From assembly GCA_027031765.1 (NCBI GenBank), contig JALVPN010000040.1, positions 83,265 to 115,264 on the forward strand: a stretch of DNA of 32,000 nucleotides, written 5' to 3'. The stretch's first letter is position 1, and every line of letters starts with the position of its first letter. The notes under the pieces were generated by a model. The model saw only the letters and a list, made by a program, of their open reading frames with translations. It was not told the origin of the DNA and made no database searches. The stretch comes from Promethearchaeota archaeon. Lineage in GTDB: Archaea > Asgardarchaeota > Thorarchaeia > Thorarchaeales > Thorarchaeaceae. Made by a program: the position numbers and the translations under genes. Shown here piece after piece: positions 3,966-28,216 of the stretch.

Positions 3966-4652
3966 CTACTGCCGCAGCACAAAGACCCCTGAGGCTGTCC
4001 CAACATGTACTTCGTCAGCCATCCCCACGAACAGGCCAGTTTCTACAACTCCGGGAACCATCTTCAATGCCACCTCTACTTCAGCAGGGTTTTCAATCGG
4101 CTCCGGGAATTCCAGATCCAGGATGAAGTTGCCGTTGTCAGTCACCACTGGCCCGACTTTTCTTTCAGCTTGGCGAAGATGAGGCACAACCCCCATGTCT
4201 GCAATTTTCCTCATAACAATGTCGCAGGCGAAAGGAATGACTTCAACTGGGACAAAGAAGTGGGTCGCAAGCCTATCGACAAGTTTGGACTCATCCACAA
4301 TGATGATGAAACGCTTGGCTGCAGAGGCAACAATCTTTTCCTGTAGTAGCGCCCCACCGCCACCCTTTGTAAGGTTCAACTGCTGGTCGACCTCGTCAGC
4401 CCCGTCCACTGCAATGTCTATTGACGGGTTCCGACTTAGGTCTGTGAGGGGGATTCCGTGTTTGATTGCAAGACGGTATGACTGGTATGAGGTTGGTACT
4501 GCAAGGAAATCCAAATCTTCGCGCACTGTGTGCTCTCCCAGTATCCGGATGAACTCGGCAACTGTGGATCCGCTGCCAAGACCAACGACTCCATGTGGAG
4601 GCAGTTCCCGAATGGCACTCTGCGCGGCCCTGAACTTTGGAGTGGTACTCAT
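3966..4652 (-). CDS. rpiA: Ribose-5-phosphate isomerase A
   Basis: VGLGSGSTV, DIAVDGADEVD, KGGGGALLQEKIVA, VVTDNGNFILD, PGVVETGLF. Start placed at ATG 4652, with TTTTGTAA 31-38 nt upstream. Confidence 0.96.
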   Translation of the reverse strand: MSTTPKFRAAQSAIRELPPHGVVGLGSGSTVAEFIRILGEHTVREDLDFLAVPTSYQSYRLAIKHGIPLTDLSRNPSIDIAVDGADEVDQQLNLTKGGGGALLQEKIVASAAKRFIIIVDESKLVDRLATHFFVPVEVIPFACDIVMRKIADMGVVPHLRQAERKVGPVVTDNGNFILDLEFPEPIENPAEVEVALKMVPGVVETGLFVGMADEVHVGTASGVFVLRQ

Positions 4653-4912
4653 GGGGACACCACGGGCGTAAGGCACGGCCAGTTACAAAACCCTTACGGC
4701 AAAGTGCCCCATGCAGCCCCCATGACGGCCCAACGAGGACTGGTGCCGGTGCAGAGCAAGGATACGACCGGTCAGCAGTGGTATGGACATGCGCAGCAAT
4801 CTGGACTGGTGCCGACGTGTCACGGCACGCGAAAACATATTTGACGCCCCAATGCAGCCTCCTCCACCCAGCCCGGTCATGGATGGCATCATGCACCGAG
4901 TGGTGAAAGGCA

Positions 4913-23838: not shown

Positions 23839-24858
23839 CTACGCAAACATCCGGCGGAGCGCGACCACGGCATATCTCCGGACTTGGTCGTCCTCGTCAT
23901 CAATGAGTTCCTGCAGGAGAGGTGCTGACGGGGCGAACCGTGCTACGCCCATCGCCCAAGCAGCATGTCGTCGGACACGCACATCATCGGAGCACAATAG
24001 TTGTGCTATGGCGCGGAGGACAAAGTCAGACCTGTCAGCAACAAGAATGCGAATCAGTCGGATCTGTTCGTTTGGCTCGGCCTGGTGCAACGCATCGACC
24101 AGACACTGTAGTGCATGTGCACTGTGCATGCCCAACAGAGCGCGGGCTGCCCACTCGCGTACCGAATCAGAGGAATCTTCCAACGCCGCCAGCAGACACA
24201 TGATTGAGGATGGGGCGCTTATTTTTGCAAGCGCCCACGCGCTGGATTGCCTGACCTCAGGATGCGAGTCGCCCAGTAGGGTGCAGAGCGTACCTATGGC
24301 CCGGTCATCAACAGAGTTGGTCATAGCGTATATAGCCTCAACCCGGAGTTCGAGCGGGACGGACTGGTCGCGTGCCATGAAACGAAGTATGCGCTGTGCC
24401 TCACTAGAGCTGGACAGGGAGAGGAGATGAACTGCCCACTTCCTCACATTGAATGGTTCCTCATCGCTAAGCAGCAGGTCAGCCACATGTAAATCAGGAC
24501 TGTTGTCGTGGATTCTGTAGGCCGCCTGTAGTCCGCGGACACGAATTTCGGAGCTGGAATCTTGCAGGGCATGCAACACAATCTTGTGGCCAGATTTCGA
24601 GTCAAGAAAATCTACCAAGCGCAGTAGCCGTAGTCGATGTTGGTGGTAGTGCGCATCATCACTTCCGAAAACGGCCTCGACGAATTCCAAGAATGGGGCA
24701 GGCGATTCGTTAGCAATGCGGATAAGAGTATTTCTTGTGCTAGTCGAGTCCTGTCCGAGGAGGGCAAGTAGCCGACGGATGTCACGAGAATGCCGAGCTT
24801 GCTTCCTCGGAGGCTTAGCAGGCAAAGAGAGGTCACCGTGACCCATATTTGTCAACAT
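23839..24858 (-). CDS. HEAT/PBS-lyase-like repeat protein
   Basis: Recurring units ALQDSSSEIRVRGL, LLGDSHPEVRQSSAWAL, ALEDSSDSVREWAARAL, LIDDEDDQVRRYAVVAL. Confidence 0.85.
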   Translation of the reverse strand: MLTNMGHGDLSLPAKPPRKQARHSRDIRRLLALLGQDSTSTRNTLIRIANESPAPFLEFVEAVFGSDDAHYHQHRLRLLRLVDFLDSKSGHKIVLHALQDSSSEIRVRGLQAAYRIHDNSPDLHVADLLLSDEEPFNVRKWAVHLLSLSSSSEAQRILRFMARDQSVPLELRVEAIYAMTNSVDDRAIGTLCTLLGDSHPEVRQSSAWALAKISAPSSIMCLLAALEDSSDSVREWAARALLGMHSAHALQCLVDALHQAEPNEQIRLIRILVADRSDFVLRAIAQLLCSDDVRVRRHAAWAMGVARFAPSAPLLQELIDDEDDQVRRYAVVALRRMFA

Positions 24859-24880
24859 AGAGGGCGAGCAGCAGAAATTG

Positions 24881-26080
24881 CTACTCGCCACTCATCAGAG
24901 CTCTCAGTCGTTCCATTTCTGCAAGCATTTCCGACTGCAGTGTAGTCTTGGTACTGCCGGCTGTGCTCGTCTGCGCGGTAGGAACTGTAGGTGCCGTGGA
25001 AACACCACCACCGGGAGGACCACCACCAGGAGGACCACCACCAGGAGGACCACCACCAGGGGCACCACCACCAGGGGCACCACCACCAGGAGGACCACCA
25101 CCAGGAGGACCACCACCAGGAGGACCACCACCAGGAGGACCACCACCAGGAGGACCACCACCGGGAGGACCACCACCAGGAGGACCACCACCAGGGGCAC
25201 CACCACCAGGAGGACCACCACCAGGGGCACCACCACCAGGAGGACCACCACCAGGGGCACCACCACCAGGAGGACCACCACCAGGAGGACCACCACCAGG
25301 AGGACCACCACCAGGAGGACCACCACCAGGAGGACCACCACCAGGGGCACCACCACCAGGAGGACCACCACCAGGGGCACCACCACCAGGAGGACCACCA
25401 CCAGGGGCACCACCACCAGGAGGACCACCACCAGGAGGACCACCACCGGGAGTTAGTGTAACAGAAGTGGCAGGTGCCGCTGACCCAGGCACGCCTACAC
25501 TTGGTGGTCCTGCTTCAACCTCTTCGGATTCGACAGAAGTCCCAGCCATCAGCGTGAGTTTCTGCAGATAATCGCGTCGTGCTTGGTCGGCAGCTGTTGC
25601 AGTGGCAAGTATCTCTTTCAACTCCTCATCTCTTGCAATTGCCTGTCGTACGACCTCGAGTCGATCTCGATAGAGGGTGGTGAGGAGCTCTCTTAGACTA
25701 TCGTCAATTTCGCCTTTGTCCGCATAGTAGTCGACTGCAACCAGTGCCTGCTGAAGCGCATTCTCCTCAATCTTTAGGAAGACGAGTGCCTCGTTGGGAT
25801 CTTTGATGAAGGACACCCTTCTTGTTCCCGAGATGCCAGCTGAAACATCACCGGTCGATGCAATTATGGCCCGAATCCCGTCCAAAACACCACTGCCACG
25901 GGTCTGTCTGATGCGGTGAATGAGGTACAGAATAGTAAGCCATACAGGAATAGAGTATATAATCATCAGCCATGCGTACGCTCCGAATGGAAAACCAAGA
26001 GGGCGCATGACACTCTCAATATGGCTGAACACGCTCATTATGGCGGATGTGATATCTCCATAAATATCCAACAACTGCAC
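24881..26080 (-). CDS. Predicted single-pass membrane protein with a helical domain, a (PGGG[P/A])x30 array and a C-terminal amphipathic helix
   Basis: Hydrophobic segment FPFGAYAWLMIIYSIPVWLTILYLI followed by HRIRQTR. Only this frame is open both across the repeat and into protein-like flanks. GGTGA SD at the start. Confidence 0.85.
   Translation of the reverse strand: MQLLDIYGDITSAIMSVFSHIESVMRPLGFPFGAYAWLMIIYSIPVWLTILYLIHRIRQTRGSGVLDGIRAIIASTGDVSAGISGTRRVSFIKDPNEALVFLKIEENALQQALVAVDYYADKGEIDDSLRELLTTLYRDRLEVVRQAIARDEELKEILATATAADQARRDYLQKLTLMAGTSVESEEVEAGPPSVGVPGSAAPATSVTLTPGGGPPGGGPPGGGAPGGGPPGGGAPGGGPPGGGAPGGGPPGGGPPGGGPPGGGPPGGGPPGGGAPGGGPPGGGAPGGGPPGGGAPGGGPPGGGPPGGGPPGGGPPGGGPPGGGPPGGGPPGGGAPGGGAPGGGPPGGGPPGGGPPGGGVSTAPTVPTAQTSTAGSTKTTLQSEMLAEMERLRALMSGE
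25004..25450. repeat. 15-nt coding tandem repeat, 30 PGGG blocks, with 150-nt higher-order periodicity
   Basis: Unit ACCACCACCAGGAGG with 8 GGGGC (Ala) variants; variants at ~25194/25224/25254 recur at ~25344/25374/25404. Confidence 0.98.
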
Positions 26081-26709: not shown

Positions 26710-27003
26710 CTATCCAACTACCAACTGTACGACGAAGAGAAGGATGGTGACTGTGGACACCAGAGCGATAGCAGCTCCAATCTTGAACGGAAACTTCCGG
26801 GTCTTGTGGTGCAACGAGAACATAGCACCAACAAGTCCAAGACCCCCACCAATTAAGCCTAGGAGAATCAATGTGGTTTCCGGAACCCGCCACTCACCCC
26901 GCCTTGCACGCCACTTGTCCCATGCCATGACAACTAGGGCCGAGAGATTGACAGCAAGCAAATAGGAAACAAGAACCCAGACCAAGGGACTAGACAATGC
27001 CAT
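26710..27003 (-). CDS. DUF1294-family membrane protein
   Basis: VNLSALVVMAWDKWRARRGEWRVPETTL...GGGLG...HHKTRK signature; ATG 1 nt after the pgk stop. Confidence 0.9.
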   Translation of the reverse strand: MALSSPLVWVLVSYLLAVNLSALVVMAWDKWRARRGEWRVPETTLILLGLIGGGLGLVGAMFSLHHKTRKFPFKIGAAIALVSTVTILLFVVQLVVG

Positions 27004-27004
27004 G

Positions 27005-28216
27005 TCAGTCATCCATCCTTCGGGCCGCTGCTTCAAGAGCACTTACGAGGGGGAGCTGCTCCCCCGTAAGGAAGCTTATGCAGGCACCGCCCCCGGTGCT
27101 AATGTGGGTTATGGAAGACTCAAGCCCCACCCTCCGTGCAAGAACCCCAAGATGGCCGCCACCTACGACTGTAACGCCGCCGCAGCTGGCGATTGCCTCC
27201 AGCACTCTGATAGAGCCATGTGCGAATGCCTCCCGTTCAAAACAGCCGAGGGGGCCATTGGCGAAGACGACGGCTGAACGTCCAATGATTTCCTCAAATG
27301 CCTCAAGTGTCTTGGGCCCAACATCAAGGACTGGACGCCCCTGAAGAGCATCAAGAGAGCAATCGACCCGTCTGCCGTCCTGTTCAATCGCTCCATCTTG
27401 AGGGAGCACGATGATATCGGAGAATTCGGATAGCAAACGACATGCAACATCAAGAACCGAGTCAGAACCGCTGATTGCAGATACATACCTGGGTGGGACT
27501 TGTCCGTTGGCTGCGAGGAAGAGAGTTGCGACAAGGCCGCCAAGCAGTGCATGGTCGACCCGTTCAGAGCGCAGGAGTTTCTCCAGTGTCTTGACCTTGT
27601 CTTGGACTTTGCTCCCGCCGAGTACGAGAGTCCAGGGGTGTTTCGTGGTTGCTGTCACCTCCGTTAGGATGCGTATCTCCTTTTCAAGGAGCCGACCAGC
27701 CACGGATGGTAACACAACCGTGAAACCAACAATAGAGGGCTGGGATCGGTGCGCAGCGCCGAATGCATCATTGACGAACAGGTCAAAGAAATGGTACAGT
27801 TCCTGTACTATCGGTTCCTGAGCGACCACCTCAGGGGGTTCCCGCTTCAGCTCTCCCGGAAAGAAGCGGACATTCTCTAGGACGACTATTTGGCCAACCT
27901 CAACTCTTTGAATGGCCCGTTTTGCGCTCTCGCCGAAAATGTCGTCAACAAAGGACGCATTGAACCCCATCTCTCGTAGAAGACGGACGTGCGACTCCAA
28001 AGACACAAAGTCACTGGATTCGGGACGCCCCTGGTGTGCCATTAGGACAACGGCGCTCTCGGATAGTTCCTCAAGTGTAGGACAGACAGCCCTAATGCGG
28101 CTGTCATCGAGGATTTCATGAGTGTCAGGATTTAGTGAGGAGTTGAGGTCTGCGCGCACAAGAACCCTTTTGCCGGCAACCTCGACATCGTCGAGTGTCT
28201 TGAATGGTAAGCGCAA
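27005..28216 (-). CDS. pgk: Phosphoglycerate kinase
   Basis: RVLVRADLNS, AHQGRP, LENVRF, FVNDAFGAAHRSQPS, LGGSKVQDK, HISTGGGA. Start placed at TTG 28216 because the upstream extension runs into tRNA-Met. Confidence 0.97.
   Translation of the reverse strand: MRLPFKTLDDVEVAGKRVLVRADLNSSLNPDTHEILDDSRIRAVCPTLEELSESAVVLMAHQGRPESSDFVSLESHVRLLREMGFNASFVDDIFGESAKRAIQRVEVGQIVVLENVRFFPGELKREPPEVVAQEPIVQELYHFFDLFVNDAFGAAHRSQPSIVGFTVVLPSVAGRLLEKEIRILTEVTATTKHPWTLVLGGSKVQDKVKTLEKLLRSERVDHALLGGLVATLFLAANGQVPPRYVSAISGSDSVLDVACRLLSEFSDIIVLPQDGAIEQDGRRVDCSLDALQGRPVLDVGPKTLEAFEEIIGRSAVVFANGPLGCFEREAFAHGSIRVLEAIASCGGVTVVGGGHLGVLARRVGLESSITHISTGGGACISFLTGEQLPLVSALEAAARRMDD

Follow-up and report, generated by a model that had tools for sequence, protein, structure and literature searches.

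A lineage-restricted Thorarchaeal membrane protein with a Pro/Gly-rich linker and a nearly invariant C-terminal helix, probably a cytoplasmic tether

ZipA of the gamma-proteobacteria is a bitopic N-out/C-in protein in which an N-terminal transmembrane (TM) anchor is followed by a long unstructured Pro-rich tether and a cytoplasmic binding element. The tails of eukaryotic cytosolic Hsp70 proteins consist of GGMP-type Gly/Pro repeats followed by the docking peptide EEVD, and those of the ribosomal stalk proteins P1/P2 have a comparable layout. The MIM1 motif, in turn, binds to the helix2/helix3 groove of the Vps4 MIT domain. To our knowledge, it is largely unknown how the eukaryote-like cytoskeletal and remodelling proteins of Asgard archaea are linked to the membrane, and we know of no Thorarchaeon in culture. 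CdvA of Crenarchaeota combines a PRC domain with a coiled-coil, a flexible linker and a C-terminal E3B peptide which binds CdvB (bioRxiv 10.1101/2025.09.15.676241), and MIM1/MIM2-MIT recognition has been described for Asgard archaea (PMC7240154). Here we report on a gene within a stretch of 32,000 nucleotides from a Promethearchaeota archaeon of the family Thorarchaeaceae (assembly GCA_027031765.1, contig JALVPN010000040.1, positions 83,265 to 115,264 of the forward strand), referred to as the window, whose numbering is used throughout. Its product is a bitopic membrane protein which is specific to Asgard archaea of Thorarchaeota type, is encoded by a single copy and most likely serves as a cytoplasmic tether in the manner of a "fishing line".

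The gene occupies window positions 24881-26080 on the reverse strand and comprises 399 codons plus the stop codon, giving a product of 399 amino acids (aa). Its GTG start is correct since 29 aligned relatives begin at the equivalent residue (MQ../MD..Y..T). From the N-terminus onwards the protein consists of an amphipathic helix, one TM segment, a helical region, a PGGG[P/A] array, a Thr/Ala spacer and a terminal helix. An AlphaFold2 model built from an alignment of 30 sequences contains helices at residues 2-28, 34-59, 65-76, 82-88, 95-121, 127-178 and 380-396 while residues 188-377 are disordered. The individual features, with the predicted local distance difference test (pLDDT) of the model where available, are as follows.

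24881..26080, reverse strand: whole gene (open reading frame, ORF; start shared with 29 aligned relatives)
25997..26077, reverse strand: N-terminal amphipathic helix, residues 2-28 (AlphaFold2, pLDDT ~85)
25904..25981, reverse strand: TM helix at residues 34-59 with its hydrophobic core at 36-54, closing with the basic cluster RIRQTR (AlphaFold2 and hydropathy)
25817..25867, reverse strand: juxtamembrane motif IIASTGDVS.G..G.KK, residues 72-88 (30-sequence alignment, pLDDT below 50)
25547..25798, reverse strand: asymmetric alpha-helical hairpin, helices 95-121 and 127-178 (AlphaFold2, pLDDT 86-96)
25004..25450, reverse strand: tandem array of 30 x 15 nt encoding PGGG[P/A], residues 211-359, uncharged and disordered (repeat analysis and AlphaFold2)
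24944..25003, reverse strand: Thr/Ala/Ser-rich spacer, residues 360-379 (sequence; a short G/S/K spacer in relatives)
24884..24943, reverse strand: C-terminal acidic Met/Leu helix, residues 380-399, putative docking motif (AlphaFold2 helix 380-396, pLDDT ~80)

Each of the systems introduced above shares part of this layout. As in ZipA, a TM anchor and a Pro-rich tether appear to keep a cytoplasmic binding element near the membrane; ZipA, however, ends in a globular FtsZ-binding domain of ~140 aa instead of a helix of 17-20 aa, its linker is charged and P/Q-rich whereas the present one is uncharged, and no homology exists. Hsp70 and P1/P2 likewise possess a Gly/Pro/Ala-rich flexible region ending in a short invariant acidic C-terminal peptide, but their bodies are unrelated and not membrane-anchored, and their terminal peptide is extended and of different sequence while that of our protein is helical. 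CdvA, too, associates with the membrane and has a helical hairpin or coiled-coil, a C-terminal linker which is flexible and, at its end, a short conserved peptide recruiting a partner. The hairpin of the window protein can be superimposed on CdvA residues 128-197 with a Z-score of 9.6 and a root mean square deviation of 1.0-1.1 over 70 residues, which is within helical noise. In contrast to CdvA, the window protein lacks a PRC barrel and any CdvA or PRC match in Pfam, has two membrane helices at its N-terminus, is TM-anchored where CdvA is peripheral, and carries a linker which is 3-5 times longer. The MIM1-bearing ESCRT-III subunits (Vps2/CHMP1-3 class; Asgard versions in PMC7240154) likewise have a flexible linker and, at their C-terminal end, an acidic helix of the pattern h-x3-h-x2-h-[KR], and their alpha1/alpha2-3 hairpin may have a counterpart in the asymmetric hairpin of the window protein; the latter protein differs from them by its TM anchor, by the absence of helices alpha4-alpha5 and by other residues at the charged MIM1 positions. 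Since it lacks every testable defining sequence or domain feature of the compared systems, the protein is a member of none of them. The tether architecture is of a known kind; the family itself is previously undescribed and lineage-restricted.

Anchor, folded core, terminal helix and family range

The top hydrophobic 19-mer of the protein, residues 36-54 (Kyte-Doolittle 2.0), lies in its sole strongly hydrophobic segment, whose flanks carry a net charge of +3 on the C-terminal side (RIRQTR) and of -2 on the N-terminal side. This agrees with an earlier note made from the DNA alone, which had described one TM helix with basic residues behind it and had proposed a cytoplasmic C-terminus. The latter proposal is supported, as a prediction, by the whole family. 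In all 115 complete members Lys and Arg are more frequent within the 15 residues after the TM segment than within the 15 residues before it (mean 3.6 versus 0.13), and an N-x-S/T sequon is found in the tail of only two of these 115. Cys is almost absent from the family, and neither a signal peptide nor a PGF-CTERM-type hydrophobic end is present in the protein. The positive-inside rule, which holds without exception (115/115), predicts a cytoplasmic tail; the N-terminal amphipathic helix would then lie outside or in the interface. This helix (residues 2-28) has a hydrophobic moment of 0.47 and Kyte-Doolittle values of 0.7-1.1, under TM level; as modelled, it would either form a membrane hairpin together with the TM helix or be an interfacial helix. 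The anchor constitutes a separable module, as mini-ORFs of 64-69 aa made of the amphipathic and the TM helix alone occur in genus g12 and in genome G320, and in five genomes such a mini-ORF is the sole match to the family. The mini-ORFs (L019:1352-1546, minus strand, and L020:1119-1322, likewise minus) end in RRGGGG and sit beside the full-length gene or replace it; some of the matches cross a stop codon.

The helical region which the earlier note had placed behind the TM segment is found in the model as helices up to residue 178, including the well-defined hairpin. Many residues are invariant on both hairpin helices (95-121 and 127-178). In the juxtamembrane motif, alignment columns I73-S80, G82 and G85 are invariant in all 30 sequences, and the motif is probably a second linear motif; it is not conserved in the sister-family homologue, in which IIASTGDVS is missing. 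Going by the model, the hairpin (~85 aa) together with the juxtamembrane motif appears to be the sole folded cytoplasmic module of the protein. Structure searches with the hairpin retrieved generic alpha-hairpins only, with Z-scores of 8-10.5, the noise level quoted for helical models being ~13. Foldseek against the PDB, a search of the ESM Atlas by features and a PDB sequence profile gave nothing informative for the family. An Atlas search by shape returned only the family's own Thorarchaeota cluster and weak helical look-alikes, among them a CdvA cluster with a TM-score of 0.20-0.25, and no structure match spans the hairpin plus residues 380-396.

Within the 30-member alignment the juxtamembrane, hairpin and terminal blocks are invariant and the anchor is moderately conserved while the linker aligns by composition only; the best-conserved block of all is formed by the last 22 residues. 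The terminal motif K-S-S-LQSEML.EMERL[KR].LM[SG]G[DE] is present in 115 of 123 members, the remaining eight being truncated at contig ends inside repeats, frameshifted or fragments, and the chain always ends with D or E. In the window protein the Thr/Ala spacer followed by LQSEMLAEMERLRALMSGE reads as previously described, and the terminal helix, whose lack of conservation the earlier note had named as evidence against its proposal, is nearly invariant. The sister-family homologue ends in the recognisably related helix SLQDEMLSAIEQLKQLIEMD. Both the terminal motif and the array are unique within the 2.95-Mb genome: a hidden Markov model (HMM) of the motif, run against 43,436 six-frame ORFs of this genome and against the ESCRT-III loci of relatives, yielded the window protein as sole significant match, and a word search with the C-terminal 40 residues retrieved, within 219-699 aa, members of the same family only. 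A protein of 2215 aa (P0126) matched in the search of representatives was discarded as a spurious hydrophobic repeat.

The 215 N-terminal non-repeat residues retrieve 262 matches of ~300-350 aa with 47-59% identity, nearly all of them hypothetical proteins of Thorarchaeota and none with a Pfam domain, and an exhaustive phmmer search over 1.84 billion cluster representatives yielded six clusters only. The range of the family was surveyed with a profile of the N-terminal 190 residues against 400 Asgard genomes. It matches 81 of the 85 genomes of the window's GTDB family, five of these 81 by an anchor-only mini-ORF of 64-69 aa, as well as the one genome of the sister family (1/1), with one full-length copy per genome, and none of the 313 genomes of 31 other Asgard families. 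Given this restricted distribution and the uninformative outcome of Pfam, PDB, ESM Atlas and Foldseek, we regard the proteins as an unannotated family specific to one Asgard order; a literature search did not find a description of it. Pfam searches with 24 members at E<=10 gave nothing informative, weak matches of five of them to Arch_fla_DE (best E 0.01) having been dismissed.

The layout consisting of anchor, helical module, disordered Pro/Gly tether and terminal helix, recognised by the earlier note in a single protein, is common to the whole family. In the reading which we favour, the N-terminal amphipathic helix and the TM helix make up the anchor, and the long Pro/Gly/Ser/Ala linker would act as an entropic spacer between the anchor side and the terminal helix. 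The latter would serve as a short docking motif catching either a conserved soluble partner or the hairpin of a neighbouring copy, so that a caught partner might be held some tens of nanometres from the membrane, and the hairpin may provide an assembly or docking platform. Of the original idea of a flexible membrane tether presenting a binding helix to a cytoskeletal or remodelling partner, the layout, the conservation of the helix and the predicted orientation have stood, while the identity of the partner has not.

The PGGG[P/A] array and the linker

Tandem Repeats Finder detects a single array in the whole 32-kb window, at 25004-25452, with a period of 15, 29.9 copies, 92% matches and a score of 765. 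At the protein level it corresponds to 30 PGGG units, i.e. the 149 aa of residues 211-359 (25004-25450). An independent check was made with Logan contigs of the sole public run containing this DNA, a hydrothermal-vent metagenome; no RNA run is listed as containing it. One of these contigs ends at 25033 and the next begins at 25423, each ~30 nt into the array, and its interior is covered by fragments of 34-60 nt only. The contigs bear out both the array and its flanks as real, but as they break off within the repeats the number of 30 units comes from the genome assembly alone; such an array is a type of sequence whose copies short reads cannot count. Hence, from the statement of 30 blocks spanning 149 residues, the presence of the array is confirmed while its length and copy number are those of the assembly. 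Only four variants of the unit occur in the array DNA, every one of its 90 Gly codons is GGT, and a higher-order duplication of ten units is present. Taken together, this indicates a recent expansion by slippage or recombination. A likeness to GPGGX silk pentapeptides, to which the array had been compared, does not extend beyond composition: the units read PGGGP/PGGGA, so GPGGX is literally absent and no G-P-G-G string occurs in the window protein. A match to Extensin_1 (PF02095) inside the repeat, with 19.2 bits against a gathering cut-off of 105, was rejected as compositional.

Throughout the family the linker has a median length of 111 aa (range 69-181, the window protein having the longest) and is composed of 27% P, 34% G and 31% S+A+T with a median of one K/R and three D/E, i.e. 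it is essentially uncharged. In the sister-family homologue (272 aa, L018:1698-2516, plus strand) about ten AGAPPA hexapeptides replace the PGGGP-type linker. Because the sister family bears this unrelated (AGAPPA)n sequence at the same place, layout and composition are under selection while the repeat itself turns over. As judged from the aligned sequences, the linker is kept for composition and length and remodelled via tandem-repeat turnover. Relatives P0037, P0062 and P0079 from public assemblies are truncated at contig ends within near-perfect GGGAP/GGGPP arrays; as several homologues are truncated inside arrays, homogeneous arrays and assembly breaks recur in the family. We would like to note that the array gives rise to long open frames on both strands (e.g. 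24878-25456 and 24948-25571 on the forward, 24904-25446 on the reverse strand) which are artefacts of the 15-nt periodicity and not genes.

Candidate partners and competing explanations

Among the specific forms which the tether idea may take, an ESCRT-linked adaptor has the greatest appeal. Were the terminal helix MIM1-like, it would bind the MIT domain of Vps4 or another ESCRT component and, comparable to CdvA of Crenarchaeota, recruit or regulate ESCRT at the membrane. The layout of alpha-hairpin, flexible linker and acidic helix at the extreme C-terminus has parallels in ESCRT-III tails and in CdvA. Two ESCRT-III proteins and a Vps4 bearing an MIT domain are encoded in the genome, and in Thorarchaeota this domain is basic and well conserved. 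In addition, the relatives' ESCRT-III paralogue not adjoining Vps4 (second Snf7 match, contig C211) reads ..ELLADLER.. near its C-terminus where our protein reads ..EMLAEMER... The hairpin superposes over 90-96 residues on the open ESCRT-III cores of Snf7 (5fd9, Z 9.0), Asgard ESCRT-IIIB (9ftl, Z 8.8) and CHMP2A-CHMP3 (Z 8.6) as well as on the CdvA filament hairpin (Z 9.6); all these scores, however, fall below the helical noise of ~13 and are tied with many unrelated hairpins. No Snf7 match (PF03357) is obtained even at E<=10, and comparing the hairpin by hhalign with each of the two Thorarchaeal ESCRT-III alignments yields E-values of 0.1-0.25 across 21-25 columns, as against E 0.0018 over 155 columns in a control between the paralogues. 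Profile comparison thus detects no ESCRT-III homology, which leaves the earlier suggestion of a remodelling partner from the ESCRT system without backing. The MIM1 consensus tested, (D/E)xxLxxRLxxL(K/R) at the C-terminus, is absent in its full form, as had been stated from the outset. In the best register, Q382..M385..E388-M389..L392-R393, the hydrophobic and basic positions are conservatively matched (M385, M389, L392, R/K393), but both charged positions fail (Q382 for D/E and E388 for R), and these deviations are invariant in the family. Furthermore, the terminal-motif HMM reaches the tails of the ESCRT-III paralogue not adjoining Vps4 with E ~5 only and in two of 24 relatives, the corresponding tail in the window genome has diverged (..DILLRLEE..) while the terminal motif is unchanged, and Vps4 and ESCRT-III are also present in genomes devoid of the family. 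When the last 45 residues were modelled in complex with the MIT domain of Vps4, the score was 0.29 (mark 0.32, run without controls), which speaks neither for nor against binding. On balance, we consider an ESCRT-linked function unlikely; the same judgement applies to the idea of an Asgard-specific membrane adaptor with a non-canonical MIT/ESCRT-binding helix which, as a TM-anchored CdvA analogue, would position Vps4/ESCRT-III at the membrane.

Alternatively, the terminal helix might bind to the unpaired distal part of hairpin helix 2, in cis leading to a closed, auto-inhibited state and in trans to an elastic sub-membrane layer or brush held by entropic springs. Of the two hairpin helices, helix 2 has 52 aa and helix 1 only 27 aa, so that ~25 residues of the former project beyond the latter; this overhang is invariant and basic (..RARSDYLRKLAAMSGT) while the terminal helix is acidic. 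The two segments have similar ends (..KLAAMSGT versus ..LKALMSGD), residues 150-180 attain a pLDDT of 86-88 in the presence and of 70-73 in the absence of the tail, and no other protein of the genome bears the terminal motif. The difference in pLDDT could, however, stem from different alignments, hairpin and residues 380-396 are not covered together by any structure match, and the likeness of the two segments does not extend to the sister family. All in all, self-association, too, appears unlikely, the elastic sub-membrane network being about on a par with the membrane adaptor described above. An actin regulator, suggested by analogy to WASP/VASP and WH2 proteins, would recruit profilin via the Pro-rich array (FH1/VASP-like) and bind actin via its terminal helix (WH2-like). 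Actin is indeed encoded in the genome (E 1.5e-133), as is an ORF with a weak likeness to profilin (E 8e-4, below cut-off). For one profilin from Thorarchaeota, weak binding to a VASP polyproline peptide is reported (Kd 200-500 uM), its natural ligands being unknown (PMC8410842). Against this, the longest Pro run is two in the window protein and in 109 of 111 relatives, the spacing is PxxxP with neither PxxP nor PPPxPP, and the sister family, too, has only PP dipeptides within its (AGAPPA)n. No LKK[TV] exists in any of 115 relatives or anywhere in the window protein, for which the absence of the WH2 LKKT motif had already been recorded, and the chain ends with MSGE three residues past the helix. 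The analogy is therefore abandoned and an actin-regulatory role deemed very improbable. Surface proteins of archaea commonly contain spacers rich in Pro, Gly and Thr, and the array could accordingly be pictured as an extracellular stalk or elastomer whose terminal helix touches envelope components; the weak compositional match to Extensin_1 would fit. That match reaches only 19 bits against the cut-off of 105, while the positive-inside pattern in 115/115 members, the sequons in only 2/115 and the lack of a signal peptide and of a PGF-CTERM-type end speak against an outside location and render it the most improbable of these explanations. A substrate of the PGF-CTERM/archaeosortase type was likewise rejected, the C-terminus being acidic and amphipathic, not hydrophobic.

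Several observations weigh against the favoured reading as a tether for a partner. No partner emerged by any of the routes taken, and the neighbours in relatives are all housekeeping genes, so gene order gives no functional clue. Nine of the 85 family genomes are without a full-length copy (five with a mini-ORF only, four with nothing, three of these four at 91-97% completeness), for which reason some lineages can dispense with the protein. With 0.19, the terminal helix has a modest Eisenberg moment; yet L381, M385, M389, L392 and M396 form one stripe. The topology is a prediction from sequence. Finally, the higher pLDDT of the distal half of hairpin helix 2 with the tail (86-88) than without it (70-73) is a model-based hint that the terminal helix may dock back on its own hairpin and not on a foreign partner.

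The family is near-universal and single-copy in one Asgard order, unannotated and without relatives elsewhere. Its terminal peptide has hardly changed while the rest has diverged to 50-60% identity, which makes this peptide a ready-made bait for a partner and gives experiments on the membrane biology of Thorarchaeota something concrete to start from. Once found, a partner would make the orphan family a way into a membrane-associated machine specific to the lineage. If the partner proved mundane or the helix bound its own hairpin, the family would still exemplify a disordered tether kept by composition amid repeat turnover.

As to the ESCRT-III proteins themselves, we would like to add that their tails are strongly conserved in Thorarchaeota (L051-L100). 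The Vps4-adjacent paralogue ends with ..EELEEAIKSLE[KR]ELG[VIM] while the other paralogue displays VLPPL followed by ..RIDELLADLEREAKEEREREA... In the window genome both ESCRT-III tails and the Vps4 linker are unusually diverged.

Genomic neighbourhood

Fifteen relatives, drawn from the two families, share the gene order PGK - family gene - rpiA; the sister-family homologue overlaps the start of rpiA by 14 nt (L018:1698-2516, plus strand). In the window genome, ~20 kb containing the RNA polymerase operon, NusA and Kae1/Bud32 separate the gene from rpiA, which is located at 3966-4676 on the reverse strand. The interval 3966-24880 holds genes for SIS, RpoB, RpoA', RpoA'', NusA-KH and Kae1 proteins, for a Bud32-like kinase and for proteins of the RNase E/G-DUF402 and DHH-CID types. 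This separation is a local rearrangement of housekeeping genes and not a mobile element. Immediately downstream, a HEAT-repeat gene (23839-24891, reverse strand; HEAT_2 E 1e-26), present once in the genome, overlaps the stop codon of the gene under study. It was considered as a partner and rejected, since it adjoins the family gene in none of the 15 relatives and is, therefore, not a conserved partner. The window also encodes GatD/GatE, PGK, archaeal RNA polymerase subunits and NurA, which together with Kae1/Bud32 identify its DNA as archaeal. Between PGK and the family gene lies a small DUF1294 membrane protein (26710-27042, reverse strand), the ORF of which overlaps the end of the PGK ORF.

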